64,000 nt of DNA from a virus. A program made the translations under genes and the position numbers. Shown here one piece after another: positions 2,348 to 37,037 of this stretch; position 1 is the stretch's first letter; every line of letters starts with the position of its first letter. The notes under the pieces were generated by a model. The model worked only from the letters and a program-made list of their open reading frames with translations. It did not search any database and was not told the DNA's origin. The stretch spans positions 1-64,000 of the IMG/VR virus record IMGVR_UViG_3300019124_000038. One strand, 5' to 3'.

Positions 2348-2372
2348 CTCACTAACCTCCTAATGGCTAATT

Positions 2373-2459: not shown

Positions 2460-2462
2460 ATA

Positions 2463-2819: not shown

Positions 2820-2824
2820 ACATA

Positions 2825-2902
2825 TGGTATGGATGCAGGGATTCGAACCCTGGACCTCTCACTCCCAAGGCGAGCGTTCTGACCAAGCTGAACTACATCC
2901 AT
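2825..2902 (-). tRNA. tRNA-Pro(TGG)
   Basis: CTCGC-CTTGGGA-GTGAG, CCA. Confidence 0.93.
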
Positions 2903-3014
2903 ATAAAATTGGCGAGCCAAACCCTCTATTACCAAACACTCGCCTGTCTGCATCCCCTGAAAGTGCAGAGTTTCCCAAGGTTAGAATGGAAGGAGAGACA
3001 AGCTCCCCGAACCG

Positions 3015-3335
3015 TTAGTTTTGAATCTTGTTAGTCAGGTTGTCAATCTCCTGCAAGATCGGTGCGAGTTGCTGGAGAGAAGCCTGAACTTGTTTCTGAG
3101 TTGCGTCGATGTTCGTTTGCAACATCTGGAATTGCATAGCCAGCATTGCCATCGACGGGTCTTGTGTCTGAGAAAGCATCTGTGCAATTTGTTGCATCTG
3201 CACTTCAATGCCGTCAAAGTTGTTTGCCGCCATCATTGCCTGATTGACCAGACCCCGTGCCGCTGTTACCTGTGCGTCGATCTGATCGCCAGTACGTGCC
3301 GCCTTCATTCCTGTGTTGAATCCAAAGTTCATCAT
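3015..3335 (-). CDS. 106-aa Gln/Met/Ala-rich coiled-coil hypothetical protein
   Basis: purine-rich RBS before ATG 3335; the longer ORF-track start overlaps tRNA-Trp. Confidence 0.7.
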   Translation of the reverse strand: MMNFGFNTGMKAARTGDQIDAQVTAARGLVNQAMMAANNFDGIEVQMQQIAQMLSQTQDPSMAMLAMQFQMLQTNIDATQKQVQASLQQLAPILQEIDNLTNKIQN

Positions 3336-3392
3336 CCTAAATCCCTTCCTTTTCCCTTGTAGTTTTTTTACGTTGTGCTCCCGAGGGAGCTT

Positions 3393-3471
3393 TGGCAAGG
3401 GCAGTAGGAATCGAACCTACCACACAATCCTTTGGAGGGATCGTCGCCTAATCCTTGGTACATGTGCCCCT
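3393..3471 (-). tRNA. tRNA-Trp(CCA), irregular D-arm
   Basis: GATCC-CTCCAAA-GGATT, T-arm GTAGG-TTCGATT-CCTAC, CCA. Confidence 0.85.
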
Positions 3472-3526
3472 ATGTTTGCAGTCCCTTTCGAGACCGTGAC
3501 GTGATGTTTTGTTATCTTATACTCAT

Positions 3527-3555
3527 ATTATATCAGCTTGTCCCATGATTGTCAA
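3527..3555 (-). promoter_or_regulatory. sigma-A consensus promoter
   Basis: TTGACA-17 nt-TATAAT. Confidence 0.85.
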
Positions 3556-3742
3556 GGAAGAACTTTTCAGCTTCCTTTCTGCCAGTTTGACGAGCTGACT
3601 TCTTCAATCGACGGTTAGCAGGATGATGCTTGTCTACCGCAGGATGCTTGCTTCCGTGGTCAAGACAGTTGGTTCGCCCATAGTGGATGCAGACTAAGCA
3701 AATTTGACGATCTCTGCGCTTCATTCCGTATGGTTTCATCAT
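3533..3742 (-). CDS. 69-aa basic hypothetical protein with CxxC/His
   Basis: MMKPYGMKRRDRQICLVC...KKSARQ; the ORF-track start overlaps tRNA-Leu. Confidence 0.6.
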   Translation of the reverse strand: MMKPYGMKRRDRQICLVCIHYGRTNCLDHGSKHPAVDKHHPANRRLKKSARQTGRKEAEKFFLDNHGTS

Positions 3743-3765
3743 GACGCCGCCTTTTGAAGTTTGTG

Positions 3766-3844
3766 TGGTGCTACTGGAGGGAGTCGAACCCATCACTTGT
3801 ACAGATTTTAAGTCTGGTGCGTCTGCCAATTGCGCCACAGTAGC
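3766..3844 (-). tRNA. tRNA-Leu(TAA), short variable region
   Basis: CAGA-CTTAAAA-TCTG, CCA. Confidence 0.9.
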
Positions 3845-3960
3845 ATGGAAGTTGCCCGTTTTCTATTAAGGGATTAAACGGAGCCGAAAACAACCGTGCT
3901 GTTCATCTACTGGAGTAGATGGGGGTGTATAAGACCCGTGCGTCAGAACATACGCACTAT

Positions 3961-4034
3961 TGGAGCGGTGTACGGGAATCTAACCCGTGTTGCCCGCTTG
4001 GAAGGCGGGAGCACAAACACTATACCAACACCGC
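3961..4034 (-). tRNA. tRNA-Gly(TCC)
   Basis: CCCGC-CTTCCAA-GCGGG; variant T-loop TTAGATT; CCA. Confidence 0.88.
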
Positions 4035-4152
4035 ATGTGGCGACGTGCTTGGACTTCGAAGTCCAGCTCCTATAAGCACACGTCATGGGCTGGAACGGCA
4101 GAGAATCTTTAACCCTGCTATTTACGCCACGTACTTTGTAGGGCGACCAGCA

Positions 4153-4254
4153 TGATACGTCCGTAGAGGGCTTGAACCTCTCAATGGCAGGAATGCCACG
4201 CAAGCGTTTGACCAACCTGTCATTTCCACTTCGCTCTCCTAACGAGCACGGACG
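4153..4254 (-). ncRNA. tRNA-like RNA without canonical anticodon loop
   Basis: CGTCCGT/ACGGACG acceptor, GCTC/GAGC D-arm, TGGCA/TGCCA variable arm, AGAGG-TTCAAGC-CCTCT T-arm. Confidence 0.55.
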
Positions 4255-4260
4255 ATGATT

Positions 4261-4352
4261 TGGCAGTAGGTAGGGGATTCGAACCCCTGAACCAGATTTC
4301 TCCAGTTGGCAGTTTAGCAAACTGCTGGTTTCAACCACTCACCCAACCTACT
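4261..4352 (-). tRNA. tRNA-Ser(GCT)
   Basis: GCAGT-TTGCTAA-ACTGC, long variable arm, CCA. Confidence 0.93.
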
Positions 4353-4408
4353 ATAGTCGAATATTAAACCACATGCTTCCAAACATATCTGGCTCTCCTT
4401 TCCACGTT

Positions 4409-4502
4409 TGGCGGGAGCGAGGAGATTCGAACTCCTGCACGACATCTCTGCCGCCTAGCTGTTTTCAAGACAGTTCCCTTTTATCCGCTTGGGTACGCTC
4501 CC
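4409..4502 (-). tRNA. tRNA-Ser(TGA)
   Basis: CTGT-CTTGAAA-ACAG, long variable arm, CCA. Confidence 0.93.
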
Positions 4503-4513
4503 GTATTGACTTA

Positions 4514-4906
4514 TGAGATACAAGCTATAAGCCACGTTCTGTCCGCTGTGCTTCAAGCGACTAGTCAGGTCTCGCACTATGCGTGACAATCATCTAACTA
4601 GGTCATACGACCTCTGGTTGTTGGTTCATTTCCCTTCCGACCAGTTCCCCGACCATTGTTTGGGTTTCACACAAGAGGGGTTTACCGCGTTTCACCCGCT
4701 CCGTTTCCAGAGCGATTCGTCACTGTGGCACTTTACGACCGCCACAACCATCTAATCTTCGATTAGTACAGGTCGTGATTCATGTCGCCGTCAGTAGTTT
4801 CCTACTGCCAGAGCTTATTAGGCTCTGCTCTCGAACTCCTACCATCTCAGGCAGGGTGTGCGTGGACTTTCCTCACCTTTCGGCGCGATTGTCCGCTTGT
4901 ATCTCA
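4514..4906 (-). ncRNA. rnpB: RNase P RNA, bacterial type B
   Basis: P1 GAGATACAAGC/GCTTGTATCTC; GAGGAAAGTCCACGC; CTGAGATG; AAAGTGCCACAGTGACG; GAAACGCGGTAAACCCCTC; GAAACCCAAA; TAGATGATTG; ACAGAACGTGGCTTATA. Confidence 0.93.
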
Positions 4907-4980
4907 CGTAACGACGATTCCATTTACATCATGTCAATGCAGACTAATAAATGAGTTGTCTATCGTCAAACCTATCTCGC

Positions 4981-5057
4981 TGGTGACGCATGAGGGGTTC
5001 GAACCCTCGATCTCCACCTTGAAAGGGTGGCGACTTATCCAACTTGTCCAATGCGCC
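4981..5057 (-). tRNA. tRNA-Glu(TTC)
   Basis: CCACC-CTTTCAA-GGTGG, CCA. Confidence 0.93.
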
Positions 5058-5060
5058 ATA

Positions 5061-5140
5061 TGGGGTGAGTGACGGGAATCGAACCCGCGACACCCTGAGT
5101 CACAGTCAGGTATGCGATACCAACACGCATCACACTCAAC
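5061..5140 (-). tRNA. tRNA-His(GTG)
   Basis: CCTGA-CTGTGAC-TCAGG, G-1/C73, CCA. Confidence 0.9.
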
Positions 5141-5183
5141 ATCTTTCAAATTCCTTACTCGACCACTCAAAGCCAGTGTTTTT

Positions 5184-5774
5184 TTAGTACAAACCGTAAA
5201 CGGTAGTTCGTGTTCCGGGGGAGATCATTGGCATTACTCCAGCGTTAAACTCAGGCAAGATGACATCAAGAGGAACGAAGTAATGGTAGTTCACTGTCTG
5301 CACAGTATAAATCCCATCAAGTGCAACCGTAGTCACCGTTTCCCCTCTTTCTACTAACATCGTATGTTTGTTGGGGAAACTAACCTGCGTTTCGTCATCG
5401 AATCTGGAAATCCATTTCTCTACAGTGCCATCTTCACGGAATCTTGTCTCTGTATAGAAACCAGACTCATTGTTGTGAATGTCAAAAGATTCTAGCATCA
5501 CATATGTTGCCAATTGACTAACCCCATCCGTAACCATGAACGGTCGAAATACAGGGTCATCCGCCATGAAATTCCAATCGTAGTCGAACATAACGATCTT
5601 TGGATGGTAGTGATACTTTCCTTCTTGGAGAGAGTAGAGACTAACACCGTCTGATTCGTAGTAATGACCGTCAATTTCGTCTGTTTCGCCAGCATGTGCA
5701 CTTGCGAGACTTGGCGTGAATGCTACCGCCATTGTCAATAGAATTGCTGTGAGTGTTTTCAAGATTTTGTTCAA
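5184..5774 (-). CDS. secreted YHYH-motif protein
   Basis: signal peptide ending ASA-H, HAGETDEIDGH...YHYH motif, AAGGAG RBS. Confidence 0.75.
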   Translation of the reverse strand: MNKILKTLTAILLTMAVAFTPSLASAHAGETDEIDGHYYESDGVSLYSLQEGKYHYHPKIVMFDYDWNFMADDPVFRPFMVTDGVSQLATYVMLESFDIHNNESGFYTETRFREDGTVEKWISRFDDETQVSFPNKHTMLVERGETVTTVALDGIYTVQTVNYHYFVPLDVILPEFNAGVMPMISPGTRTTVYGLY

Positions 5775-5852
5775 AGCCGCATTGCTCCTTTTGTTTTAAG
5801 AGTCTGGCTTTGAGTGTTTCTTTGTTGCTCTATCTTGTTGCTTGTCGAGTTT

Positions 5853-5928
5853 TGGTTGCTACGCGCTGGAATTGAACCAGCTTGACAAAGGTTATGAGCC
5901 TTCGTGAGATACCTACCTCCCGCCAGCT
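5853..5928 (-). tRNA. tRNA-Met(CAT), initiator-like
   Basis: AAGG-CTCATAA-CCTT; unpaired 1:72; irregular acceptor stem; CCA. Confidence 0.75.
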
Positions 5929-5933
5929 ATATA

Positions 5934-6009
5934 TGGGGCAACCAAGTGGAATTGAACCACCGACCTATCCCTTATCAGGGGATTGCTCTACCAACTGAGC
6001 TATGGTTGC
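5934..6009 (-). tRNA. tRNA-Ile(GAT)
   Basis: ATCCC-CTGATAA-GGGAT, CCA. Confidence 0.92.
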
Positions 6010-6196
6010 ACGTTATATGCAGATCATCTAACCGTCTGCCCACTGTGGGGTCTAACTATGATCTGCGTCGAGACTTCGGGGCGCATGTTTTAGGCAAGTG
6101 CCAGCCCATACATGTATTTCCCATTTTTCGCCTGTCTCGAAGTTTTTCCCCCATTTCTGCACTCCATAAGCACTTCGGAGCAGAGGAACGGTTTTT

Positions 6197-6275
6197 TGGA
6201 GCGATAGACGGGATTCGAACCCGCGGGCCTCCGCATTGGCAATGCGGCACTCTAAGCCGACTGAGCTACTATCGC
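6197..6275 (-). tRNA. tRNA-Gly(GCC)
   Basis: CCGCA-TTGCCAA-TGCGG, CCA. Confidence 0.92.
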
Positions 6276-6278
6276 ATA

Positions 6279-6355
6279 TGGCGTATCCTACAGGATTCGA
6301 ACCTGTGACCTCTGGCTCCGCAAGCCATTGCTCTTGTCCACTGAGCTAAGGATAC
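6279..6355 (-). tRNA. tRNA-Arg(GCG)
   Basis: TGGC-TTGCGGA-GCCA, CCA. Confidence 0.9.
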
Positions 6356-6356
6356 A

Positions 6357-6433
6357 TGGCACACCGTAAGGGATTCGAACCCCTGACACGCTGGTTCGAA
6401 GCCAGACGCTCTAGTCCTCTGAGCTAACGGTGC
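6357..6433 (-). tRNA. tRNA-Arg(TCG)
   Basis: CTGG-CTTCGAA-CCAG, CCA. Confidence 0.9.
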
Positions 6434-6437
6434 ATAT

Positions 6438-6512
6438 TGGTGGAGAAGACGGGACTTGAACCCGCGACCCTTCGCTTGCAAGGCGAATGCTCTACCTCTG
6501 AGCTACTTCCCC
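6438..6512 (-). tRNA. tRNA-Ala(TGC)
   Basis: TTCGC-CTTGCAA-GCGAA, G3-U70, CCA. Confidence 0.95.
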
Positions 6513-6625
6513 ATATTAGTGGACACTAGAAACCCCTAACCTCATGCCCGTTGGTTTTCTTTGACGCGCGTGGGCGGCTTTCGCCGTTCCCGTTTGCTCG
6601 GCAAGGACTCCGTTATTAAGTCATT

Positions 6626-6712
6626 TGGTGTGACTAGAGAGACTTGAACTCTCATGACCTTGCGGTCACTACACCCTCAATGTAGCGCGTATGCCAATTC
6701 CGCCATAGTCAC
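6626..6712 (-). tRNA. tRNA-Leu(GAG)
   Basis: CTACA-TTGAGGG-TGTAG, long variable arm, CCA. Confidence 0.93.
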
Positions 6713-6815
6713 ATGCGAAGCTAGGACAATTCTCAGAGTCACCGATTTCCATGTCCAAGGTTTCCGCATCGAGCAGGTTTACCTTCGGTGATTCGCCTAC
6801 AGTCTGAGTCTTATT

Positions 6816-6891
6816 TGGTAGGAGTGAAGGGATTCGAACCCCCGACTTCTTGCTTGTAAGGCAAGCACTCTTCTCGCTGAGTTACACTCCC
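6816..6891 (-). tRNA. tRNA-Val(TAC)
   Basis: CTTGC-CTTACAA-GCAAG, CCA. Confidence 0.93.
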
Positions 6892-6896
6892 ATATC

Positions 6897-6971
6897 TGGT
6901 GCTCCCTAGAGGACTCGAACCTCTGACCTTCACCACGTCAAGGTGACACTCTGCCACTGAGTTAAGGAAGC
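6897..6971 (-). tRNA. tRNA-Val(GAC)
   Basis: TCACC-TTGACGT-GGTGA, CCA. Confidence 0.93.
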
Positions 6972-7059
6972 AAGTTTTGATCGTCTCGGTGAGGAGCGTC
7001 ACCCGCAGGTGTCTCCTCTAAGCTGTCCAGCTCATTCACGAGAATTTGAGACGATCATT

Positions 7060-7135
7060 TGGTGGCTCGTACTGGACTTGAACCAGTGACTTCTTCCTTA
7101 TGAGGGAAGCACTCTACCAACTGAGTTAACGAGCC
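7060..7135 (-). tRNA. tRNA-Met/Ile2(CAT)
   Basis: CTTCC-CTCATAA-GGAAG, CCA; Met versus lysidine-Ile not resolved. Confidence 0.9.
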
Positions 7136-7233
7136 ATTAGGCGAGAGTTTCATGGAAGGGCTGACTAGTATTGCCTTCGACAAAGGATTCCCTTCGCTCT
7201 CATGGGCGAAAGTATCTCTCGAACCTTTTTTGT

Positions 7234-7309
7234 TGGTGACGGGTACTGGAATCGAACCAGTGACGCAAGGATTTTCAGCCCTTCGCTCTACCTACTGAGC
7301 TAACCCGCC
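7234..7309 (-). tRNA. tRNA-Phe(GAA)
   Basis: AAGGG-CTGAAAA-TCCTT, CCA. Confidence 0.93.
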
Positions 7310-7312
7310 ATA

Positions 7313-7388
7313 TGGCTACAGGGATGGGACTCGAACCCACGACCACGAGATTAACAGTCCCGCGCTCTACCAACTGAGCTACCCTGCA
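7313..7388 (-). tRNA. tRNA-Asn(GTT)
   Basis: CGGGA-CTGTTAA-TCTCG, CCA. Confidence 0.93.
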
Positions 7389-7482
7389 ATAATTAATGAT
7401 GAGGTAAACTCCAGATCAAACCCTCATCCCCGCACCCTCATCGGCTTCTGCACATGTGTACGCATGTGGCGGGTTTCCCTTT

Positions 7483-7560
7483 TGGTGCGCCCTGCTGGAC
7501 TCGAACCAGCGACCCTCCGATTAAAAGTCGGATGCTTACTACCATCTGAGCTAAGGACGC
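7483..7560 (-). tRNA. tRNA-Lys(TTT)
   Basis: TCCGA-CTTTTAA-TCGGA, CCA. Confidence 0.93.
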
Positions 7561-7569
7561 ATATTAGAT

Positions 7570-7665
7570 TCTAAGAGTGCGCCTACCATCTAGGCGGTTG
7601 GGACGGCTATGCGTGACCCCACCGAGGAATCGAACCCCTATTTTGCATTTTTCGCTACCCTTAGA
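7570..7665 (-). ncRNA. circularly permuted tRNA mimic (YrlA-type Y RNA topology)
   Basis: closing stem TCTAAGGGT/ACTCTTAGA, then T-arm GGGG-TTCGATT-CCTC, capped acceptor-like stem, D-arm GCCTA-GATGG-TAGGC. Confidence 0.6.
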
Positions 7666-7668
7666 TTT

Positions 7669-7742
7669 TGGCGGTTCTGACGGGAATCGAACCCGCGACC
7701 TTCGATGGACAGTCGAGAATTTTGCCATTAAACTACAGAACC
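7669..7742 (-). tRNA. tRNA-Asp(GTC)
   Basis: TCGA-CTGTCCA-TCGA, CCA. Confidence 0.92.
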
Positions 7743-7744
7743 AT

Positions 7745-7819
7745 TGGCGGGGGATGTGGGGGTCGAACCCACGACACTCGGAGTCAAAGTCCGATGCTCT
7801 ACCACTGAGCTAATCCCCA
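7745..7819 (-). tRNA. tRNA-Gln(TTG)
   Basis: TCGGA-CTTTGAC-TCCGA, CCA. Confidence 0.93.
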
Positions 7820-7898
7820 ATATTTGGAACTCACTTCGTCACATTGACTAGCTATGACAGAGTGGAGTCAGACTCTCGAACTGGGTCACAGTTCTACA

Positions 7899-7975
7899 TG
7901 GTGCTGGTGACAGGAATCGAACCTGCGACCTTCTGCTTACAAGGCAGTTGCACAACCAACGAGTGCTTCACCAGC
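7899..7975 (-). tRNA. tRNA-Thr(TGT)
   Basis: CTGC-CTTGTAA-GCAG, CCA. Confidence 0.92.
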
Positions 7976-7998
7976 ATGTCTTGTTATCTTATATCTGT

Positions 7999-8027
7999 AT
8001 TATACCATCTAGCCAGTAGGCTGTCAA
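7999..8027 (-). promoter_or_regulatory. sigma-A consensus promoter of the main tRNA operon
   Basis: TTGACA-17 nt-TATAAT with extended TG. Confidence 0.85.
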
Positions 8028-8069
8028 GGAAGTTTGTGGAAATCTTTCACTGACTAGATGATATAAGCA

Positions 8070-8261
8070 CTACTCTGTCAGGTTAGTGTAGCATTCTCCT
8101 CCAGCCGCAACCCAATCAGTCGCGTACTTTTGCAGAGAATCCCAAACTACCTGCGGGTCAGTTGTGCGATGACCACGAACGATGACGGTTCCGTCGCACC
8201 AAAGCTCCAGAACTGTTTCTCCGCTCTTGTCGGCCATACTGAACAGTTGAGTAATACCCAT
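8070..8261 (-). CDS. 63-aa hypothetical protein
   Basis: AAAGGAGGTG RBS. Confidence 0.7.
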   Translation of the reverse strand: MGITQLFSMADKSGETVLELWCDGTVIVRGHRTTDPQVVWDSLQKYATDWVAAGGECYTNLTE

Positions 8262-8349
8262 CTAGCTCCACCTCCTTTTCTGTGGCAAGAACAGATACTT
8301 CTTGGGGTCGAACATTTGATGCTATGGGTGACACCATTTACTTCGGTAG

Positions 8350-8535
8350 GTGTCGTACCGCCGCGAGTCGAATCTTACACTCCCTGCGGTCGAGAGCTTG
8401 AGAGGTGACTTGCTTCGGGGAAACCCGCCAACTTTGGAAACCAAGCTGACGTAAAACCCGAAGCCGCCCGTCTTGACTCGTTTACCCCCGAGGAGACGAA
8501 TGAATGGCGTTTGGGGAGATTCGACGTACTCTTGC
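8350..8535 (-). ncRNA. 6S-like long irregular hairpin RNA
   Basis: about 185 nt; GTCGAATCT/AGATTCGAC, GCTTCGGG/CCCGAAGC, CGTCAGCTT/AAGTTGGCG; TCACCT and 3' GCGGCGG words. Confidence 0.45.
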
Positions 8536-8540
8536 ACGTT

Positions 8541-8616
8541 TGGAGCACCGAGTCGGAATCGAACCGACGAATGGCAGGATTTGCAGTCCTGTTGCTCAAC
8601 CATTGAGCATCGGCGC
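8541..8616 (-). tRNA. tRNA-Cys(GCA)
   Basis: CAGGA-CTGCAAA-TCCTG, U73, CCA. Confidence 0.92.
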
Positions 8617-27192: not shown

Positions 27193-27432
27193 ATGGCAAG
27201 TGGTGCTGATAAAGCGAAGCTGGAGCTTCTGGCTACTGATAGCATCAAAAAGGTATACAAGGACTCACTTTCAATTTTGGAGATGCTCGGTTTACCATCC
27301 GAACAATTCCAACGAGCGCGAAAGATGATTCTCAGGTCGGGTAACGATGAAATTCGCAAAGTCTTGGAAGAACTCGAAAAGTACGAGGTGACATATCACC
27401 CTCGATACAATGAAACCATCGAGTTTGAATAA
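27193..27432 (+). CDS. 79-aa hypothetical protein
   Basis: strong RBS; RKMILRSGNDEIR. Confidence 0.75.
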   Translation: MASGADKAKLELLATDSIKKVYKDSLSILEMLGLPSEQFQRARKMILRSGNDEIRKVLEELEKYEVTYHPRYNETIEFE

Positions 27433-27505: not shown

Positions 27506-28186
27506 TTGAAGATGGCTCGTAAAACAACTAATGCAAAGGCTACGGAAATGCCAGAAAAAGAACAGCGCGATCTGATGACCGAGATCAAAACTGGTCGGCG
27601 CGTATTTGACACGTCGCGGGGTCTGGTGCAAATCCGATTCCCGAAGGTCGAGGAAAACCGTCTTGCCGATTGGGAGTATACTCGGGTACTGACTCAGGCG
27701 ATTAAAGACGGCATTATGACCAATAAACAAATGCGACAGTTCATTGAGGAAAACGAACTCTGGACTGATGCTGATGAAAAAGAGATCGAAGCACTCAACG
27801 CAGAGATTGACAAGCAAATTGTAGTCCTTTCAAAAATGGGAGAGAACACGAAAAACGCCGACAAGGTTGAAGCGAAGATCAACGAGCTTCGTCAGCAAGT
27901 CTTCCAAAAGCAACAAGAGCGCCAAAAATTTTTCAACAACACAGCGGAAGCAAAGGCAGATGAATCAAAAATGTCCTTCTTGCTCTACAAGTGTTCGGAA
28001 GATGCTGAGACAAACAAGCCATTGTGGGAATCTTACGATGCTTTCAAGAACGAGGAAGACCAAGAGCTTGTGAATACCATCGTGTTCCAGTTCCTCACAT
28101 TCATCAACGGCTTGCCAGCGGACTTCCTTTCGTACCCTTCCGCTAGTAAGGGAGAAACAGAAGAGGACGAAGCTATCGAGGAGTAA
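27506..28186 (+). CDS. tail assembly chaperone, G-like part
   Basis: position between tail tube and tape measure genes. Confidence 0.65.
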   Translation: MKMARKTTNAKATEMPEKEQRDLMTEIKTGRRVFDTSRGLVQIRFPKVEENRLADWEYTRVLTQAIKDGIMTNKQMRQFIEENELWTDADEKEIEALNAEIDKQIVVLSKMGENTKNADKVEAKINELRQQVFQKQQERQKFFNNTAEAKADESKMSFLLYKCSEDAETNKPLWESYDAFKNEEDQELVNTIVFQFLTFINGLPADFLSYPSASKGETEEDEAIEE

Positions 28187-28351
28187 TCCAGTTCCAAGTT
28201 CGAGCTAGGTGAAACCGCTAGTGGGAATCCTTACAGTCAAATTTTCGACTGTAGCTCCCGTGCTTCCACCGTGCCCACAGCATTCATTGATGCTCGAACG
28301 GACGGCTAGATGAAAGACGATAGCTGATGACTCAACTGCCCGAACTGCGGA
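28187..28351 (+). other. structured RNA element between the two chaperone ORFs
   Basis: nested stems CAGTTC/GAACTG, GTTCGAGC/GCTCGAAC, GTGGG/CCCAC, TACAGTC/GACTGTA, GCTA/TAGC. Confidence 0.6.
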
Positions 28352-28364
28352 TGGGGTTCTTAGA

Positions 28365-28742
28365 ATGATTGCGCGGGGGCATGGAGAGGTAGGGGCTGAA
28401 TGGAGAGCAAGATGGAGAGCGTCTACCAAAACAAGTAGCCCGCTATTCGAAGGGGTTACGACAGACTGGAACATCAATCAGGTCGCGCTAGTCTTCTGGA
28501 GCAATTTCTATGACAACATCTACGAACATCCAGAAAGACCAGAACAGAAAATTATAGACAATGACGATCTGTTGGACAAATGGGTGGAAGATCAAGCGAA
28601 GAAGATGGAAGAGAACAGCCGCAAGAACAGTAAGAGGTACAAGAACGCTACGAACACTCTCGACTATGACGAAGTTATCGTGTTCGATGAAACGATCATC
28701 GAAGAGGAATACGACGACGAGGAAGAGGAGGAGTGGGATTAA
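28365..28742 (+). CDS. tail assembly chaperone, T-like part
   Basis: EWRARW...YDNIYEHPERP...DDLLDKW; immediately before tape measure gene. Confidence 0.65.
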   Translation: MIARGHGEVGAEWRARWRASTKTSSPLFEGVTTDWNINQVALVFWSNFYDNIYEHPERPEQKIIDNDDLLDKWVEDQAKKMEENSRKNSKRYKNATNTLDYDEVIVFDETIIEEEYDDEEEEEWD

Positions 28743-28802: not shown

Positions 28803-31800
28803 TTGGCTAACGACTTTAAGTATATTATTAATACCGAGTTAAAACTGAATACTGCTTCGGTTAAGGCATTGATCGAGGAGGTTAAGGCTGTTGACGGTGA
28901 GCTGAAACGAGCACTGTCTGGCAATAAAGCTCCGAAAGTAAATGTCACAGCGAAGCTAAAACTCGAAGAGAACGCGGCTCAATCGTTAGCTCAACAGATC
29001 GGAACCGTCACAGCTAAGGTGCATCTGCGGCTAGAAGAAGCATCATTGCGTCAGATTGTAAACGATGTTCGCAACTCACTCCAGAATATCGGCGTGAATC
29101 TGAATGTTGGAACAAATGCTGGACAGGCAACAGCTCCTGTGGCTTCAACTGGGCGACGCTCTCTTCGTGATGTTCGTGCGGCACAAGCAAATGGTCAGCC
29201 CCTGAGTGTGCAAGATGAGGAACGACTGCTTCGCATTCAAGAGCGTCGTCTTCGTATCAAGCAACGCGAAATCGCAATTGATCGCGAACTGAATGGTACT
29301 CCTACTCAGTCTCAACGCTTCAAGATTGAACAACGGCAACTTCGCGATGCAGAATTGGCACAACGCAGACAAGAACGCGAAGCAGAGCGTGTAGAGAGCC
29401 GCAGACTTCGTGAGGTAATGCAAGCTCGTCTCCGCACTGAGAATCAAGACAATTGGAAGCTCACAAGACAGTGGGGAGAAGCCAAAACTTTCCGCATTAA
29501 GCAACTGAACACCCCAACAGGTACAGTTAGCCAACTTCCAATTAATCACCCTGTTCGCACTCTAGACCGTGAAGTCAAGGCGGCGTATAATGCGCGTGTT
29601 AAACAATACGAAGAAATGTTCAAAGAACTTGATAGGGTGCTTGCAGAAAGCCCAACTTCCAAGACTGCTCTGAATCGCCAAGTCAAATACATTAGCCCTC
29701 AATATCTGAGACAAATTCGTGAACGCCAGATGCAAGAGGAGCAATATGCAAATGACTGGAGAAATGCGGAGCAACTGAGAAGTCAGCAAGATCGTACTCC
29801 TTTGGGTGCGACTCGCCGACTCCCTGCAAGTCATCCTGTCATGTTGGCGATCAAGGAGCGTCGTGCGGCGCAAGATATGCAAACAAAACTCCTTGATCTC
29901 AATATCCCTCTGGCGCAAAAAACTGCGCTCATGCGTGATTACGACAAGACATTCTCTGATATTGCGAAGCAAGCAGGTATGTCATTTACTAAGTCGTTCA
30001 AGATTCAGCACCTGAATTCGGATGGAACGATTTCCGAACTTCGCACAGTAACGAAAGAATACCGCGCTAATGGTGAAGTAATTGACCGTAGCCAACGGTC
30101 AATGAATCATATGTTCCGCACGATGGGTCAAAACATCGTTATGTACAACATGATCGCTGGCGGTATTCGCAACATGACGCAAGCTCTGATGCAAGGCATC
30201 GTATACATGGCTGAATACGAGCAACAGTATGTTCGTTTGTCAACTCTCGTTCAAACTCGTAACATGGACATTGAGCGTCAAGATCAGGCTGGAACGAATC
30301 AGGCTGGTGCTGTAGCTATTGAGCAAAGCACACTGAAAGGTGATGTAAACTCTCTCGCTCGTAGATATGGCCTGAATCCTACAATGGATGTAATGCCACT
30401 CTATGGCGAACTGGTGAAGCGTAAGGATATCGCTCCTGATCGTGCTACAGCGACAAAAGTAGCAGAGATGATTATTCAGGCTGGATTCGTAGCTAAGAAT
30501 GGCAATCCTGATGGTGGCGATCTCCTGAAAATTTCTGCTGATGCAATGACTATCTATGCTAAGATGGCTCCTCAGTGGAAGAAGCAGGGATTAGACCCCT
30601 CTACAGAGTTCTCAAAATTCAACGACTTCCTCGCTTCTCTCAACGACCGTGGCGCGAAAATTGACGTTACCTATGACGCAATTCAAGGTCTTGGTGAGTA
30701 TGCAGGCCCCGGAAAGTTGAGCTTGAACAGACTCGGTGCTATTGTTGCTCGATCTTCTGCTTTGATGAATGATGCAACAGGCTCTGAGCTGGAGAATCGA
30801 CTGAAAATGTACTTCGCTAACATCCTCGACCCTGATAGCCCAACAGCTAAAATGGCTCGGGATTCTATCGGTATCAGCTTAGTCACTAATGGTCGCAAGA
30901 CTAACTTAGGACAAGCACTTGACCAAGTGGCAGACCGAATCAATGGAACCAACGGACAAGAGAAGGCTACTGATAAGGAAATCGAGATGTGGGCGCGTAA
31001 CCTTGCTTCTGCTTCAGGTAGCGGCGGGGGTCGTATGCTGGCTCAAATGATTTCTATGCTTAAAGCAACTGCTGATGCACCTAGAGCTGAAGCAGAAGCA
31101 AGCGTAGACTCAGAGGGCGCGGCGGCAAGAATCACTACCCGCTATATGGAGACTCTGAAAGGCTCGTTCCGCGAACTCATTTCAGAACTCAATATCTTGA
31201 TGCAAGAGCTTGGTGAGTCTGGACTTCTTGGATTCTTCAAGGCTCTGACGGACGCGGCTACAATGCTGGTTGGTGCTCTGAATACTGTACTCGGTACGTG
31301 GAACTCTATCGGTTCCGCTACACGGCAATTCATGGGCATTAACATCACACAATTGATTGGCACACTCGCTGGTGTGGCTGGAGCGATTAAGCTAATTAGT
31401 TTTGCATTAAACAAGACTAGCATTGGGGCAAGCATTACGGCATTCGGCGCGAACCTTATCAATGGAGTTCGTAACCGTGGACAACTTCCAGCTACGAACC
31501 GTGGCGGCTACATCGGAAATACGGCGGGTAACTTCGTAGGAAATCTTCTTGGCGAACGAATTGCTAACCGAATGGCGGTGCGTGAAGCATCTACTGCGGC
31601 TGGTGCGGGTATTGCTGGATGGCTTGGTAGGGCTAGAGCTGGTACTGCAAACGCTTGGAGAACAGGTGTAGCGGGGGCAAGTTCTGCTGGCGTGATGGAT
31701 ATAATCGTAGGTGGTCTTGGAGGTCTCGGTAAGGCGGCATGGAACCTAATGGGCATCTTCGGTCGCCTGACACTGGTAACTGGTGCGGTCATTACTGCAT

Positions 31801-34800
31801 GGCAATTAGGCTCTTACCTGATGAAGCGGCAGAATGAAATTCAAAAAAATAACATTCAGGAGTTTGCTTCTCAATTCACTTCCGCTGAATCGGAAGCAGA
31901 ATTCAGAAAGAAACTGGATGAGTTCTTAGTACTGGATAAGAAAGTGTTCAGTGTAGACCCGAACAATCAACCTACTGAAGAAGAGCGTAGAAGATTCGGA
32001 GAGCTTACAGATGAGATGCGTAAATCTGGTATCTCTTTTGAAGGCCCTCATATGTATTCCTACACTACACAGGATGGAAATAAAGTAAACTTCCGTAGTG
32101 GAGATCAATCTGCCTATGATAGACTGGTAGAAGACGGGCGCAAAGCTGGTAGAATTAGAAGCGAAGAAGATAGACCATTCGAACGATCTGTACAGGCTTA
32201 CATGAATATGGGAGCCGTTATGGACGGTCTGCGTAGACTCGGAGAGGTTGTTCAAGACGCAGATCGCTACGCGAAAATCGCTTCTTCGGGCAATGACTTC
32301 CGCTTTATGGGTGCTACCAACTCATCGGCATACTACTCTGCCCAAATGGGTGTACACACGAATGCTTTGCAACAACTAAGTGGCGGATACTCAGCTCTGC
32401 AAAATGATAAGCGAATGATCGACTCTACCCTGATGAACCTTGACTCTGACCTCGCGGCAATTCAAGGGAAAACAAATCCGAAGTTCGTAGAAGAAATCAA
32501 CGCAAAGTTTACAGAAATGAAGAACGCTGGTCAAGAAGCTCAATTCCTTGATAGCTACCAAGACTACGAGACCGAAGAAGGCAGAGCTAAAGCGGCTTAT
32601 GCCCTTGCGAAGTACAACAAGGAAATGGCGGCTAAGGCGACCCAAGGCATCCAAGAAGAGATCGACAAGACTAATCAGTCGATCATTGACCATGTAACAA
32701 AACTCAAAGACATGCACTCACAATATGTGCAAGCATCTGCTGGCGTTCAGCTCTTTGAGCAAGCTCTAAAAGGTGTTCGAACAAACATCACAGCGGCACA
32801 AAACCTCATGAACGCAATCCAAAACCCTGAGCGTAGAGTCAAGCAAGGCGCGACAGTGTTTGGCATGATGATCCAAGAGGTCGGACTGCTCGATCAAGAA
32901 CTTGGTTCAATCCAAGCGAAAATGGCAGAATTGCAAAGTACTGGTCAAGATTTCTCAATCAATGCACTCTACAACCCGAACTCAGAAGGTCTATCTGCTG
33001 AACAAGCGGCATACAAGGGTCTTCTGGAGAAGCGTCAGGAGGTTGAGTCAACCCTTCAATCATCTGTAGCCGCTCAACGCGAAATGCAGGAGCAAATGGT
33101 ACAGCTTGTAATGTCAACCGACAGATACAAGGACATGTGGGACAGTGTACAAAGCCGTCTTGAAATGATTCGGGGTATGGCGAAAGAGATTCGAGACTTG
33201 CAAAATCAAGAGATCGTCAATGCTTCAATGAATGGCATCCGTTCACGTCTGTTGGGTCAAACATTTGACGCTAATGGCGAAGCTAAATCACAGTATGAGC
33301 AACTGCGAGACGCGCATCTCTCGAATGTCGAAAAGCTCCAAAAGGCTCGACTTGAATCTGGTCAAGATGCTGAGAAGTTGAAGCAAGCAATTGATGAGAT
33401 CAACTCGAATACTCGCGACCAAATGAAGAGTGCCATCATTGACCCAATGAAGAACCTCATTAGGAATGACCTTAGCGACGCTATTAAGCGTCAACAGGAC
33501 GCAAGCGAGGAACTTAAAAAAGGAGCAGAGTTCTTTGACCAATCGGCACAAGAACTGCTGACAAAACTCCAAAGTGTCAAGATTACCGTTAGCTCAGATG
33601 GTAAGACAGTTTCCTTCAGAGACGGCACTTCTACTGCTTCCAGTATGACAACAGATTCCAATAATTCATATTGGGATAATGCTAACTGGGATGACCCTGA
33701 AGTGCAGAAGCGTTACAAGCGTCAATTGAACAAGGAAGAGAGCGACAAAAAGGCTCTTGACCTGTCATTTGGTGGCGGTCAAAAAGACTTTGTTGAGAAG
33801 ATGGCTCCATATGCTTCTATGGCTTCACAGAAGACAGGGCTTCCAATGGACTATATTCTAACTCAATGGGGTCTGGAATCTGGTTGGGGAACCTCGGCGG
33901 CAGTACAGCAGAACAACAACTTTGCTGGTATTAAGCCTTGGGGTAACTACCGTGGAAGTGCGGCAAATCCAACTTATGCGGCATACTCAACAGTCGGTGA
34001 TTTTGCGAATGGTTATGCAGACTTCTATTTGCAAAACTCACGATACAACGGTCTTATCTCAGCGGCTAAGAGCGGTGCTGGTACTTCACAACTGTTCAAT
34101 ATCCTTGGAGGTACTGGATATGCAGAAGACCCTAACTACGCAAGTAAGCTGAGTTCTACTGCAAGCTATGTGCGTCAGTATATTCCAAGCTCATACGGCG
34201 TAGCAAATCCAAGTGCTACCGCTATCACACAAGATAACGGTGGGCTGGTGGTAAACGCTACTGGCTTAACAAACGAAGCTAACTCTGCGGAGGAAGCGGC
34301 GCGTCGTGATCAGGAGTACAAGCGCAAGGCGCAAATGTACGAAATGCAAGAACTCTTTGCTTCGTTCAGAGCGCAAGCAATGGCATTGGCGAACAATAGC
34401 GTGGAGTATGGCGTAAACAACCAGATTCGTGACGCAAAAGTACGCTACTCCATCACTGGAGCAAAATCAGAGTTGACTCTTGGAACATTCGATGCCTACA
34501 ACAGCGGGCGCGAGGAGATCGCCCGCAGAAAGGCAGAGAATGCTGAATACCTGAAAGTTCTGGAGAACGAGAAGAAATACCGTGAGTCTGTCAGCGCAGG
34601 GTATTATGCTGATGCCATGTCTACTGGTGACTACTCGCTCTACCACGCGAACTCAGAAGGTATCAAAATGTTCGGCGAGATGATCGAGACTCTGAAAAAG
34701 AACAACGAACAACTCGACGCTCTGAACAAGACCTACTCTGAACGGGCTTACTTTGACCCACGCTATAACAGCGGGGAAGCAAATAAAGAGATCAAATCTC

Positions 34801-37037
34801 TGCTTGAATCCCTTCAAGACAAGATCGAAAAGGGGGAAAGTGGCGACGGTCAGTACTACCGAATGCTCGACGATCTCCAACGCATGAACAGCGAGTATTT
34901 CAACAGAGAAAAAGCTGTGGATGCTCGGAAGTTCGCTTTCGATAAGTTTGGCTTTGATTACGAGGGCTACGCACGAGTCAAGCTAATCAAGCAGAAGGAA
35001 GACCTTGAACTCCTCTTCAACCAATGGGTGCAAATCAGTGATGTTCTTGCAACCATGAAGAGAGGGTCTAATGACTGGTTCGCTGTTCTTGAAGACGCAG
35101 TCGCTATCCAAGAGAAGTATGTCGAACTAGAGAACAAGAAAACTGAACTGTCGAAACGCTGGTTCGAACTGACGGGACAAGATATGCCAGCTTATGTCAA
35201 CTCTCGCGCTTATCAGCAATCCCGTGACTATGTACAGGACAGAAAGAACCTCGGAACCGCTATCAGTGAATACCGCGATAAGGGTCAAACAATGGATGCT
35301 AATGAGCAACTGGTTACGCTCCAGATCATCTCGGAAACTGCTGATAAGCTGGCGCAACAAATGAACGATTACCGCACGGCTGTCGTCGGTGCGTTCAAAG
35401 CTGGTGCGATCAGCATGGACGAGTATATCCAACGCCTGTACGATCTCAGAGATGTTCAGCGGGAAAACAGAGAGCAAGCTGTTCAGATGATGGATAGCAT
35501 CTCTGGAACCTTTGAGCAATCTCTGGCTAGTGCTCTGCAAAGCGGAATGCAAGGCAACTTCGATGCCCCGTTAGAGTTCATGCAGAATGTAAAGAATGGT
35601 CTGGCATCTGCTGTTTCAAGCCAAATGTCAAATCTGATTCTGAACAACTCTGGTCTGAAAACCGTAATGGATGGACTGATGAAGTCCATGACCGAAGCAA
35701 TGACTACAGGTGATGTGAACAAGAGTCTGAATGCTTTCAATCTGAATGACTTCAAGGGTCAGATTGACAGCGCACTTGCTCCATTCCTGCCGCTCATTCA
35801 GCAAATCTCCGCTAGTACCGATGGTATTTTCGGCATCATGAAAGACCAAGTGTTCAACGCACCAACGGGCTTCAAGATCGACGATTACCTCTATAGGTAC
35901 ACTAAGGACAAGACCTATACCGATCTTGCTCCTTGGTTGGATGGCACTATCCGAAACGAAGCTGGCTCTCCAATTGGGCAAACACCATCTGGAACAATTA
36001 ATGTTCCCACTCTTCCTGCCCCAAAAGGCGTTCCAAATGTTATCACGAACCCCATTGATCCACTTCGCGGCGGAGCGTTGGTCGAAACAAAAGTTAGAAA
36101 CCCTGTAAAGGAAATCATTCAAAACATCCTGAAAGATCAATCTGTTTGGGATGCTAAGACTGGTCTGTCTGATGCGGGGAATGTGCAAGCCCACACTAAC
36201 GCAAACGCAAACCGCAAACTTTTAGAACAAATCGCACCAGATATCGCAAGGGCAGTTGGGGATGGAAGCACTGGTTTAGGCGGTTCGGCTCTGCAAGACT
36301 ACTTGAAGAATACTGACCTGTCAATGTTTGATATGGTAGAAAAAACGGATGGTGTCAACAGCTCTATCGTTGGGATGAACTCTGATCTGAAAACGAAGCT
36401 GGATACTCTGAACGCAACTACGGCGCAAGTCGTATCTGCTATTGCAAGTATGCGGTCATCTGGCGGCTCAAGTTCATCTGGCGGCTCATCTTACTCATCG
36501 AATTACGGCTCTGTATCGTCTAACGATGCTAAACTCGCGCAAATGAAAGCAAACTCAGCGGCTTGGGCTAACGCTACAAGCGACGCAGAGCGGCAGAAAC
36601 TTGCTGATGCTAACCTTTCGCTCGGCGCGTCATTGGGCTATACCCGTGGTGATGATGGTGTGTGGCGCGACAAGAGCGGTAAGCGGGTTTACCATACAGG
36701 CGGTATCGCTGGTGTCGGAAACTTCGCTAAGGCTAGTGGTCTGATGCCGAGTGAGCTTAATGCGCTCTTGCAAAAGCATGAATATATCTTCCAGCCAGCT
36801 CAGGTAAGCGATCTGATCGGTGGTGCGGTGGCTCGATACGCGGACAGTGGATACAGCACTGGTATCGGCGGAGGGTTCGCAACACAAAGTGAAGGGGTTA
36901 ACATCTATGTCACCGTCGAGGGTGGCGGCGATACCTCAATCGAAGCGGCTGTAAAAAATGCTGTACGCCTTGCATTTGTGGAGTACGACAAGTCTAAGCG
37001 ACAAATGGCTCTCCAAACTAGGGGTGTCACCTACTAA
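28803..37037 (+). CDS. tape measure protein with glucosaminidase (GH73/FlgJ-like) domain
   Basis: 2744 aa, helical; QWGLESGWG..NNFAGIK..GYAEDPNYASKL; C-terminal YHTGG motif. Confidence 0.9.
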   Translation: MANDFKYIINTELKLNTASVKALIEEVKAVDGELKRALSGNKAPKVNVTAKLKLEENAAQSLAQQIGTVTAKVHLRLEEASLRQIVNDVRNSLQNIGVNLNVGTNAGQATAPVASTGRRSLRDVRAAQANGQPLSVQDEERLLRIQERRLRIKQREIAIDRELNGTPTQSQRFKIEQRQLRDAELAQRRQEREAERVESRRLREVMQARLRTENQDNWKLTRQWGEAKTFRIKQLNTPTGTVSQLPINHPVRTLDREVKAAYNARVKQYEEMFKELDRVLAESPTSKTALNRQVKYISPQYLRQIRERQMQEEQYANDWRNAEQLRSQQDRTPLGATRRLPASHPVMLAIKERRAAQDMQTKLLDLNIPLAQKTALMRDYDKTFSDIAKQAGMSFTKSFKIQHLNSDGTISELRTVTKEYRANGEVIDRSQRSMNHMFRTMGQNIVMYNMIAGGIRNMTQALMQGIVYMAEYEQQYVRLSTLVQTRNMDIERQDQAGTNQAGAVAIEQSTLKGDVNSLARRYGLNPTMDVMPLYGELVKRKDIAPDRATATKVAEMIIQAGFVAKNGNPDGGDLLKISADAMTIYAKMAPQWKKQGLDPSTEFSKFNDFLASLNDRGAKIDVTYDAIQGLGEYAGPGKLSLNRLGAIVARSSALMNDATGSELENRLKMYFANILDPDSPTAKMARDSIGISLVTNGRKTNLGQALDQVADRINGTNGQEKATDKEIEMWARNLASASGSGGGRMLAQMISMLKATADAPRAEAEASVDSEGAAARITTRYMETLKGSFRELISELNILMQELGESGLLGFFKALTDAATMLVGALNTVLGTWNSIGSATRQFMGINITQLIGTLAGVAGAIKLISFALNKTSIGASITAFGANLINGVRNRGQLPATNRGGYIGNTAGNFVGNLLGERIANRMAVREASTAAGAGIAGWLGRARAGTANAWRTGVAGASSAGVMDIIVGGLGGLGKAAWNLMGIFGRLTLVTGAVITAWQLGSYLMKRQNEIQKNNIQEFASQFTSAESEAEFRKKLDEFLVLDKKVFSVDPNNQPTEEERRRFGELTDEMRKSGISFEGPHMYSYTTQDGNKVNFRSGDQSAYDRLVEDGRKAGRIRSEEDRPFERSVQAYMNMGAVMDGLRRLGEVVQDADRYAKIASSGNDFRFMGATNSSAYYSAQMGVHTNALQQLSGGYSALQNDKRMIDSTLMNLDSDLAAIQGKTNPKFVEEINAKFTEMKNAGQEAQFLDSYQDYETEEGRAKAAYALAKYNKEMAAKATQGIQEEIDKTNQSIIDHVTKLKDMHSQYVQASAGVQLFEQALKGVRTNITAAQNLMNAIQNPERRVKQGATVFGMMIQEVGLLDQELGSIQAKMAELQSTGQDFSINALYNPNSEGLSAEQAAYKGLLEKRQEVESTLQSSVAAQREMQEQMVQLVMSTDRYKDMWDSVQSRLEMIRGMAKEIRDLQNQEIVNASMNGIRSRLLGQTFDANGEAKSQYEQLRDAHLSNVEKLQKARLESGQDAEKLKQAIDEINSNTRDQMKSAIIDPMKNLIRNDLSDAIKRQQDASEELKKGAEFFDQSAQELLTKLQSVKITVSSDGKTVSFRDGTSTASSMTTDSNNSYWDNANWDDPEVQKRYKRQLNKEESDKKALDLSFGGGQKDFVEKMAPYASMASQKTGLPMDYILTQWGLESGWGTSAAVQQNNNFAGIKPWGNYRGSAANPTYAAYSTVGDFANGYADFYLQNSRYNGLISAAKSGAGTSQLFNILGGTGYAEDPNYASKLSSTASYVRQYIPSSYGVANPSATAITQDNGGLVVNATGLTNEANSAEEAARRDQEYKRKAQMYEMQELFASFRAQAMALANNSVEYGVNNQIRDAKVRYSITGAKSELTLGTFDAYNSGREEIARRKAENAEYLKVLENEKKYRESVSAGYYADAMSTGDYSLYHANSEGIKMFGEMIETLKKNNEQLDALNKTYSERAYFDPRYNSGEANKEIKSLLESLQDKIEKGESGDGQYYRMLDDLQRMNSEYFNREKAVDARKFAFDKFGFDYEGYARVKLIKQKEDLELLFNQWVQISDVLATMKRGSNDWFAVLEDAVAIQEKYVELENKKTELSKRWFELTGQDMPAYVNSRAYQQSRDYVQDRKNLGTAISEYRDKGQTMDANEQLVTLQIISETADKLAQQMNDYRTAVVGAFKAGAISMDEYIQRLYDLRDVQRENREQAVQMMDSISGTFEQSLASALQSGMQGNFDAPLEFMQNVKNGLASAVSSQMSNLILNNSGLKTVMDGLMKSMTEAMTTGDVNKSLNAFNLNDFKGQIDSALAPFLPLIQQISASTDGIFGIMKDQVFNAPTGFKIDDYLYRYTKDKTYTDLAPWLDGTIRNEAGSPIGQTPSGTINVPTLPAPKGVPNVITNPIDPLRGGALVETKVRNPVKEIIQNILKDQSVWDAKTGLSDAGNVQAHTNANANRKLLEQIAPDIARAVGDGSTGLGGSALQDYLKNTDLSMFDMVEKTDGVNSSIVGMNSDLKTKLDTLNATTAQVVSAIASMRSSGGSSSSGGSSYSSNYGSVSSNDAKLAQMKANSAAWANATSDAERQKLADANLSLGASLGYTRGDDGVWRDKSGKRVYHTGGIAGVGNFAKASGLMPSELNALLQKHEYIFQPAQVSDLIGGAVARYADSGYSTGIGGGFATQSEGVNIYVTVEGGGDTSIEAAVKNAVRLAFVEYDKSKRQMALQTRGVTY

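Follow-up and report, generated by a model that had tools for sequence, protein, structure and literature searches.

The locus examined here raises the question of how two reading frames that lie directly 5′ of a tape measure gene, and that no single frameshift can join, are expressed by a phage. They are found in a window of 64,000 nucleotides, positions 1 to 64,000 of IMG/VR record IMGVR_UViG_3300019124_000038. The source record is a 146.5-kb virus contig with genes for 27 tRNAs and for the RNA of RNase P, and the phage is a large one of the Paenibacillus type. The order of ORF1, ORF2 and the tape measure gene (Table 1) is identical in all relatives, whose tape-measure genes carry Glucosaminidase, SLT or NLPC_P60 domains. 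Gene order alone suggests that ORF1 and ORF2 encode a tail assembly chaperone; neither has a Pfam or PHROG match, and the UniRef name of one homologue is 'Tail assembly chaperone'. The 79-residue protein encoded directly 5′ of the pair also has no match in Pfam or PHROG, and its gene keeps its position in close and distant relatives. There is no endonuclease-sized ORF between 27.1 and 28.8 kb.

Table 1. Positions of the genes, codons and RNA elements at the locus, numbered from the first letter of the window.
Feature	Position	Strand	Description
Small upstream gene	27193..27432	+	Helical protein, 79 aa, conserved; directly 5′ of the chaperone pair
ORF1 (N protein, G-like short product)	27512..28186	+	224 aa from ATG 27512
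Proposed take-off codon CTT	28127..28129	+	Leu of GLPADFL; last residue common with fused homologues
ORF1-specific tail and TAA	28130..28186	+	18 codons, with x-x-P-S followed by an acidic stretch; 5′ side of the rod
Helix 5′ strand	28134..28143	+	ACCCTTCCGC; gap-closing, conserved; P-S codons of the ORF1 tail
Insert	28187..28346	+	Lineage-specific lengthening of the hairpin loop; itself folded
Helix 3′ strand	28347..28357	+	GCGGATGGGGT; G-rich, Shine-Dalgarno-like
Proposed landing codon CTT 28359-28361 and resume codon AGA 28362-28364	28359..28364	+	
ORF2 (C part, T-like)	28365..28742	+	125 aa from ATG 28365
Tape measure protein gene	28803..37037	+	2744 aa; fixes the genomic context

An original prediction, made from the window's letters, placed the end of ORF1 at 28186, the ATG of ORF2 at 28365 and a TGA that closes the ORF2 frame at 28311-28313, in each case correctly. 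The stop of ORF1 is the TAA at 28184-28186, and its frame is open from TTG 27506 as well as from the ATG. ORF2 lies in the +1 frame relative to ORF1 and is closed upstream by a TAG at 28206-28208 in addition to the TGA, which bears out the claim that no single frameshift joins the two. The family DNA set used for comparison consists of 21 distinct loci, that of the window included, which differ by up to ~40%. In these, the frame of ORF2 relative to ORF1 is 0 in four loci, +1 in six and −1 in eleven, and a single −1 or +1 frameshift is ruled out by this variation together with the stops. As the frame varies among relatives, readthrough cannot be general. There is no suppressor among the genome's 27 tRNAs and, read with table 11, open frames reach 2744 codons, so that the genetic code looks standard; an alternative code or suppressor readthrough, considered in view of the in-frame TAA of L004, L012, L003 and L016, was rejected on these grounds. 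A split intein is also excluded, because ORF2 opens directly with residues homologous to those of fused proteins and leaves no room for an intein half.

Fused homologues and the position of the junction

It had been proposed that homologues in which both parts form one ORF be sought and their junction aligned. Such homologues exist, although they are found only by a full HMMER search: there are no fused forms among the close proteins that share 5-residue words, and none among 70 homologues of ORF1 (147-238 aa). The search with ORF2 returned 1152 relatives, and among the best 150 of these, 113 are 266-410 aa long, and in nearly all of the 113 the ORF2-like part lies near the C-terminal end. The closest fused proteins (P0073-P0077, 46-51% identical) read ..F-x-x-F-x-x-G-x5-(L/V)-R-x-x-A-R-G.., and no indel is needed to align them with a chain in which ORF1 (..FINGLPADFL) runs on into the R-M-IARG of ORF2 and the junction has one Leu. 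The fused proteins of L010, L011 and L024 align in this way too, and Arg comes straight after the junction residue in them. Given this alignment, the Leu is the one residue that occurs both before and after the gap between the two frames. A profile of the fused family matches this genome in two stretches (profile positions 4-191 at 27554-28120 and 191-301 at 28350-28703) and nowhere else, and thus there is only one N and one C part in it. A fusion at the shared Leu would be 332 aa long, compared with 321-341 aa in the fused homologues. Its predicted junction is ..GLPADFL|RMIARG.., in place of the GLPADGVLR or AIEEGVLR that had been expected, and the 18-residue acidic tail of ORF1 would consequently be dropped from it.

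The AlphaFold model of the fused protein P0076 (pLDDT 91.9, pTM 0.82) is one compact all-alpha fold in which the junction lies within helix 193-200. With Foldseek, the fused model has no match in PDB or BFVD at E <= 0.001.

In most related phages, the tail-assembly protein appears to be encoded by a fused N-C gene together with a separate N-only gene. In effect, a separate N-only paralogue adjoins the fused gene in 70 of 70 loci with such a gene. A single N gene followed by a C frame is found in the family studied here and in L009, L056 and L057. In L057, the N and C frames overlap and a canonical −1 slippery sequence, CCCTTTA, is located six codons before the junction; the −1 product reads ..GIPL|RVIRSLARG.., and the arrangement is that of the classic G/G-T. 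In L009, and possibly in L056, the C gene has its own ATG, so a non-covalent complex of N and C may be enough. Taken as a comparison of gene arrangements, these loci support the view that a short and a long form are both made and that single-N loci would achieve this by recoding.

There are no cultured relatives of the locus in INPHARED phages or PLSDB plasmids by DNA and protein search, and ORF1 is present in one of 401 sampled genomes of the order.

Codons, helix and insert in the gap

The Leu up to which ORF1 and the fused homologues coincide is encoded by CTT in all 21 loci. By comparison, each of the four other invariant Leu columns draws on five to six codons, and CTT accounts for 22% of all Leu codons. 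The Leu on the 3′ side of the gap is CTT in 12 loci and CTA in nine, and nothing else, and therefore the third base differs between the two sides in nine of the 21 (CTT vs CTA). Thus, the codons that match across the gap are these Leu codons and not GCG-GAY, as had been proposed. The GCGGA(C/T) match on both sides is not conserved in relatives, and its 3′ copy is part of the G-rich strand of a helix described below. The direct repeats TCCAGTTCC and CCGCTAGT, which had been pointed out in addition, are present, but their number is no higher than chance allows, being equalled in 10 of 100 shuffles. Pairing of TCT with AGA was considered as a cause of the invariance of CTT and rejected, as it shows no covariation and is broken when Arg is CGG or CGA. 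The codon after the invariant CTT is TCG, TCA, CAA, GTT, GTA, ATT, TAT, ACA, TTC or GAG, and in none of the 21 loci is it a stop or a consistently rare codon. The peptide before it, QFxTFxNGLPADFL, is the most conserved block of ORF1 and is also conserved in the fused homologues, for structural reasons.

The conserved sequence of ORF2 opens with Leu-Arg-x-(Ile)-Ala-Arg-Gly in every locus, and its first ~35 residues are nearly invariant, with many synonymous differences. The Arg codon varies (AGA, CGG or CGA), and thus the Arg is selected at the amino-acid level. By contrast, residues 5′ of the Leu in the ORF2 frame are not conserved. Stops occur 0-7 codons 5′ of Leu-Arg in several loci, and in L012 a stop stands directly before the Leu. 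Between the preceding stop and the IARG motif, ATG, GTG and TTG are all absent from the ORF2 frame in 10 of 21 loci; close relatives that lack any start codon are found on ~160-kb contigs in assemblies of Paenibacillus illinoisensis and P. xylanexedens. In the window itself, ATG 28365 falls on a variable residue, the x that follows Leu-Arg in the motif. This has a bearing on annotation, since in most members of the family ORF2 is cut short by gene callers or given an arbitrary start.

The gap had been predicted to be structured, which is borne out for the gap as a whole and not for the insert taken alone. The insert alone (28180-28370) has a z of −1.8, and 12 of 200 shuffles fold as well, that is, chance level. 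In contrast, the whole gap including the ORF1 tail (28121-28367) folds into one long rod of −85.4 kcal/mol (z = −3.7), matched by none of 200 shuffles. The consensus fold of the window and L003 has 60 pairs, of which five are compensatory and none is broken. The stem that was expected to close the structure (28187-28194 with 28342-28351) is unsupported. Instead, the conserved outer helix pairs 28134-28143 with 28347-28357 and, in the window, encloses the ORF1 tail, the stop and the insert. This gap-closing helix is found in all 21 loci, with 12-23 bp and −17.6 to −30.8 kcal/mol; it is present in every unconstrained MFE and is recovered de novo by RNAalifold. Its base lies close to both Leu codons, with 5-7 nt between the first codon and the C-rich 5′ strand and 0-6 nt between the G-rich 3′ strand and the second. 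A G-run (GGAGG, GGGGG or GGGG) is located 0-6 nt 5′ of the second Leu in 19 of 21 loci; a motif scan finds none in L003 and L039, which have a weaker TGGG or AGGG.

Covariation analysis, which had been suggested as a check, supports this helix in both gap classes and gives no support to the stem first proposed. Short- and long-gap loci were tested separately because a joint alignment misaligned the 3′ flanks. In the short-gap set, 92.7% of cells are paired (55-65% in slid controls), six of ten pairs have changed on both sides and none of 500 shuffles reaches the score. In the long-gap set, 81% are paired and nine of 19 pairs show double changes, again with 0 of 500 shuffles.

The distance from the ORF1 stop to the Leu-Arg of ORF2 is 172 nt in the window and 171 nt in L003, 13-29 nt in eleven relatives and 212-254 nt in eight loci. 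Hence, the extra ~160 nt that had been noticed in the window are real. Measured from Leu to Leu, the gap is 229 nt in the window, 67-102 nt in the eleven relatives and 67-298 nt across the family. The insert, which is missing from the eleven short-gap relatives and common to the window and L003, contains an apical hairpin (28232-28253) and a stem (28198-28205/28292-28299), and its 3′ part pairs with the ORF1 tail (28171-28178/28318-28325). The window's insert also has sequence blocks in common with the ~220-240-nt inserts of the L016 class. In a protein tree, the long-insert loci form one clade and the window falls into a weak group with a long and a short locus, which suggests that the insert is old and has since been trimmed or lost. 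A coding role was rejected: an apparent peptide common to the window and L003 covers part of the insert, but its frame is interrupted by indels and loci of the long-insert class do not have it. Rfam has no relevant match to the insert or the gap, either at gathering thresholds or at permissive E-values (E <= 10 for the window, E <= 1 for nine relatives' loci).

The feature seen in the window is a family-wide coding gap closed by a hairpin, with the insert as a passenger in the loop. Probably, the insert only lengthens and stabilises the looped-out hairpin, and the geometry at the base is unchanged. Relatives without it have the same start-less, frame-variable arrangement, and for this reason it is not the recoding element, contrary to what was first proposed. 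The broader idea of a non-standard joining of the two parts is supported by the comparative evidence, with ribosomal hopping as the best candidate.

Proposed bypass and alternative readings

The reading favoured here, for which we estimate a probability of about 0.5, is that ribosomes carry out a programmed bypass from CTT 28127-28129 to CTT 28359-28361 and so produce a 332-aa G-T-like fusion alongside ORF1. Matched codons, a structure that juxtaposes them at its base, a Shine-Dalgarno (SD)-like run and resumption in any frame point to bypassing rather than to frameshifting, readthrough or ordinary initiation. From the anatomy, conservation, covariation and colinearity with fused homologues that are observed in the family, we infer that hopping takes place and that a minority of ribosomes take part in it. 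The majority would unwind the hairpin as they translate the acidic tail of 18 residues, and their termination at TAA 28184 would give the G-like product of ORF1. The minority would come to a halt where the hairpin begins, with peptidyl-tRNA-Leu on CTT 28127-28129; the helix that begins 5-7 nt 3′ of this codon in all 21 loci may have a part in take-off. The stalled ribosomes would then lose their pairing with the codon, cross the 229-nt gap in its folded state and pair again at CTT 28359-28361, possibly aided by the G-rich SD-like strand. Translation would resume at AGA and yield the fusion. Extra sequence in the loop, such as the ~160 nt of the window, would be tolerated if ribosomes skip the hairpin in its folded form, and such insertions may tune the efficiency. 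By extension, and at similarly even odds, this family of large Bacillota phages would make a G-like and a G-T-like tail-assembly protein from one gene by a Leu-to-Leu hop at the base of a conserved hairpin, over 67-298 nt. On the bypass reading, part of the skipped gap would also double as the C-terminal tail of the short product.

Several points weaken this reading. The gap of 67-298 nt exceeds that of any proven bypass (50 nt), CTT is paired with CTA in nine loci, and neither a stop nor a rare codon follows take-off. In addition, a CCTCC/GGAGG helix, anti-SD on its 5′ side and SD-like on its 3′ side, is the classic anatomy of coupling by SD masking. There is a normal start codon at a workable distance in the window, L003, L002 and L039, and the C genes of L009 and possibly L056 start at their own ATG. 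These points hold the estimate at no more than the value given.

The main rival, judged less probable, is that the structure tunes re-initiation at 28365, as the original prediction also considered. In such translational coupling, the helix may mask the SD-like sequence of ORF2, and the locus might encode two separate proteins. Ribosomes on the ORF1 tail could open the helix and allow a low level of ORF2 starts at ATG 28365, while in relatives ORF2 might start at near-cognate or unknown codons, with N and C possibly associating non-covalently. On this account, a tentative role for the insert would be to tune the tightness of masking. In all 21 loci the partner of the G-rich strand (GGAGG, GGGGG) resembles CCTCC, as coupling would have it, and the window has a helix-sequestered GGGG, then 8 nt, then ATG. 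An SD followed by a start 5-10 nt downstream is found in the window, L003 and L039, and ATG or TTG occurs at the variable or the Ile position in L003, L002 and L039. Moreover, 18 of 21 loci (the exceptions are L037, L039 and L042) have an ATN codon at the Ile position, and a C gene can have its own ATG, as seen in L009 and possibly L056. It also helps this rival that 70S sliding and re-initiation after termination are documented (PMC11194080).

Nevertheless, a canonical start is absent in 10 of 21 loci, and where in-frame starts are present their frequency is about what chance would give in 8-19 open codons. The G-run and the ATN codon are 9-15 nt apart, and at the position of the latter L037 has TTA, L039 CTA and L042 GTT instead. 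Coupling leaves unexplained the amino-acid-level conservation of the Leu-Arg that lies 5′ of the ATN codons, as well as the choice of CTT only on one side and CTT or CTA (CTW) only on the other, with one Leu duplicated relative to the fused homologues. A junction inside a helix of a single compact fold, as in the AlphaFold model, also speaks against two separate proteins. If coupling were nonetheless the answer, SD masking would act across up to 280 nt on downstream genes without a start, which would itself need explanation.

It is improbable that the gap is removed from the RNA, whether as an intron or as a hairpin that is excised with ligation of the ends, so that the mature mRNA encodes the fusion. 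The helix does juxtapose both junction sites, and splicing was among the original suggestions. However, group I and II introns and small ribozymes of Rfam have no match in the window's gap or in nine relatives' loci, and in relatives the gap can be as short as 67-102 nt, most of it translated ORF1 tail, which is below the size of self-splicing introns. Excision would also have no need of a Leu codon at each junction. Furthermore, the ORF1 tail is kept (x-x-P-S, usually acidic), which means that the unspliced mRNA must be translated; beyond x-x-P-S, it is variable, acidic in most relatives and basic in L012. As for decay, stops and frame changes between ORF1 and ORF2 might be expected if ORF2 were the dying remnant of a once-fused gene and the insert junk in a dead spacer, but an intact ORF2 with strong protein-level conservation and many synonymous changes in 21 loci, together with a covarying gap helix, makes this very improbable indeed.

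Comparison with known systems

In the literature, bypassing is described for T4 gene 60 and its homologues, for yeast mitochondria and probably for the Hau3 terminase; in the literature searched, none is described in tail chaperone genes. T4 gene 60 is a programmed translational bypass with a 50-nt coding gap (PMC5009743). As in gene 60, the family has matched codons (CTT at take-off and CTT or CTA at landing in 21 of 21 loci), an mRNA structure after the take-off site in 21 of 21 loci, to which a similar role may be ascribed, an SD-like sequence shortly before the proposed landing codon and a highly conserved peptide just before take-off; resumption in any frame is possible in both. Unlike in gene 60, no stop adjoins the take-off codon, which lies 5-7 nt before the helix and not within a stem-loop, and the gap is 67-298 nt rather than 50 nt. 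There is also no adjacent homing-endonuclease gene and no sequence similarity. Finally, the 5′ part of the gap is translated as the ORF1 tail, so that two useful products would be obtained instead of one. There are very few proven systems of programmed bypassing, and in these it serves to save a gene from an insert. If the bypass proposed here is real, it would be the first to set a two-product ratio; according to a 2016 review of recoding, a bypass with a regulatory or two-product purpose would broaden interest in the phenomenon (PMC5009743).

The terminase of Streptomyces phage Hau3 is a candidate for UUA-triggered bypass of 10-nt inserts (PMC10732093). Both cases concern a phage structural or packaging gene, with a proposed SD-like helper and stem-loop and an inference based on colinearity, but the gap here is a long hairpin rather than 10 nt, and no conserved rare codon corresponds to the rare A-site codon of Hau3 (PMC10732093).

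The two ORFs directly 5′ of the tape measure gene recall the G and G-T of lambda. The −1 frameshift that yields the lambda G/G-T tail assembly chaperone was reportedly described by Xu, Hendrix and Duda in 2004. It also appears in a figure legend of a review (PMC5009743). The short product and the C-terminally extended one proposed here would likewise have a common N-terminal part, and the sister L057 carries a canonical slippery heptamer at the homologous position. Unlike in lambda, there is no ORF overlap or slippery site, ORF2 may be in any of three frames, and every frame has stops between the two ORFs. The N part, ~205 aa, is larger than gpG and, in the searches of Pfam, PHROG, PDB and BFVD, does not resemble known chaperones in sequence or fold. 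The same two products would be made by relatives of the fused, the duplicated and the −1-frameshifting kind, and the family offers unusually rich comparative signals, with an invariant take-off codon, a covarying hairpin and frame-independent resumption.

For coupling, the model is the coat-replicase pair of the RNA phage MS2, in which translation of the downstream gene is coupled to that of the upstream one by long-range SD masking. As in MS2, an upstream coding segment pairs with a downstream ribosome-binding region and its translation would open the pairing; unlike in MS2, most family members have no start codon after the masked site. For bypass over a long gap, the closest analogy is the leader hairpin of the CaMV 35S RNA, where scanning 40S subunits are shunted before initiation in eukaryotes. 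In both, a large and stable hairpin would be passed over whole, without unfolding, between take-off and landing sites at its base, which would explain the tolerance of loop insertions of 160-240 nt. By contrast with the CaMV shunt, the ribosomes proposed to pass over the hairpin here are elongating bacterial ones that carry a peptidyl-tRNA. If this is true, no other natural bypass would be as long as the one proposed for this family, and elongating bacterial ribosomes would use a mechanism akin to shunting.

Translation-related genes and probable hosts

The window holds every tRNA gene of the 146.5-kb record, and an RNase P RNA gene is embedded within this array (see the table). There is no suppressor tRNA among the 27 tRNA genes of the record. 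Two near-identical contigs of the same phage family (L004 and L015), each of about 160 kb, were found in assemblies from isolates of two species, Paenibacillus illinoisensis and P. xylanexedens. Since these are isolate genome assemblies, cultured hosts of the family probably exist and, if so, would serve for experiments on these phages.

Features in the window and in related loci
Feature	Location	Strand	Remarks
tRNA gene array	window 1674-8616	(-)	27 genes; all 20 amino acids covered
Bacterial class B RNase P RNA	window 4523-4900	(-)	238 bits, full-length match
In-frame TAA, then C gene	L009:2107-2200		relative, 35% identical
Single N gene, overlapping C frame	L056:3060-3180
Canonical -1 slippery heptamer CCCTTTA	L057:3043-3049		6 codons upstream of homologous junction

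Relatives with separate N and C frames

In L056, one more locus with a single gene for the N part of the presumed tail-assembly chaperone, the C frame is +1 relative to ORF1, overlaps it and has its own ATG-ATG. A CTT is followed, after 6 nt, by a perfect 11-bp hairpin (CCTCCCCCAGG/CCTGGGGGAGG), and CTG-AGA (Leu-Arg) lies 18 nt 3′ of this hairpin. Frameshifting, bypass and separate initiation are all candidates for its decoding. In L009, the C gene has its own ATG and an N-terminal extension of 20-30 residues that is found in no other relative; this locus is a candidate for a genuinely split form or else for readthrough.

Fused genes, frameshifting and the lambda precedent

In all 70 fused N-C loci counted (L058-L124, L010, L011 and L024), a separate N-only paralogue adjoins the fused gene, downstream in 65 and upstream in 5. 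The predicted structure of one fused protein (P0076) is a compact all-alpha fold of high confidence (pLDDT 92), with no match in PDB or BFVD; consequently, it may represent an undescribed kind of tail-assembly protein. In L057, from a sister-lineage phage, the sequence indicates that the N and C frames are joined via the CCCTTTA site, a G/G-T-type frameshift in this protein family that is absent from the annotation. This arrangement is of the same type as lambda G/G-T. Judging from gene content, the fused gene and its N-only paralogue are a two-gene way of supplying the short and long forms, a need that lambda meets by frameshifting.
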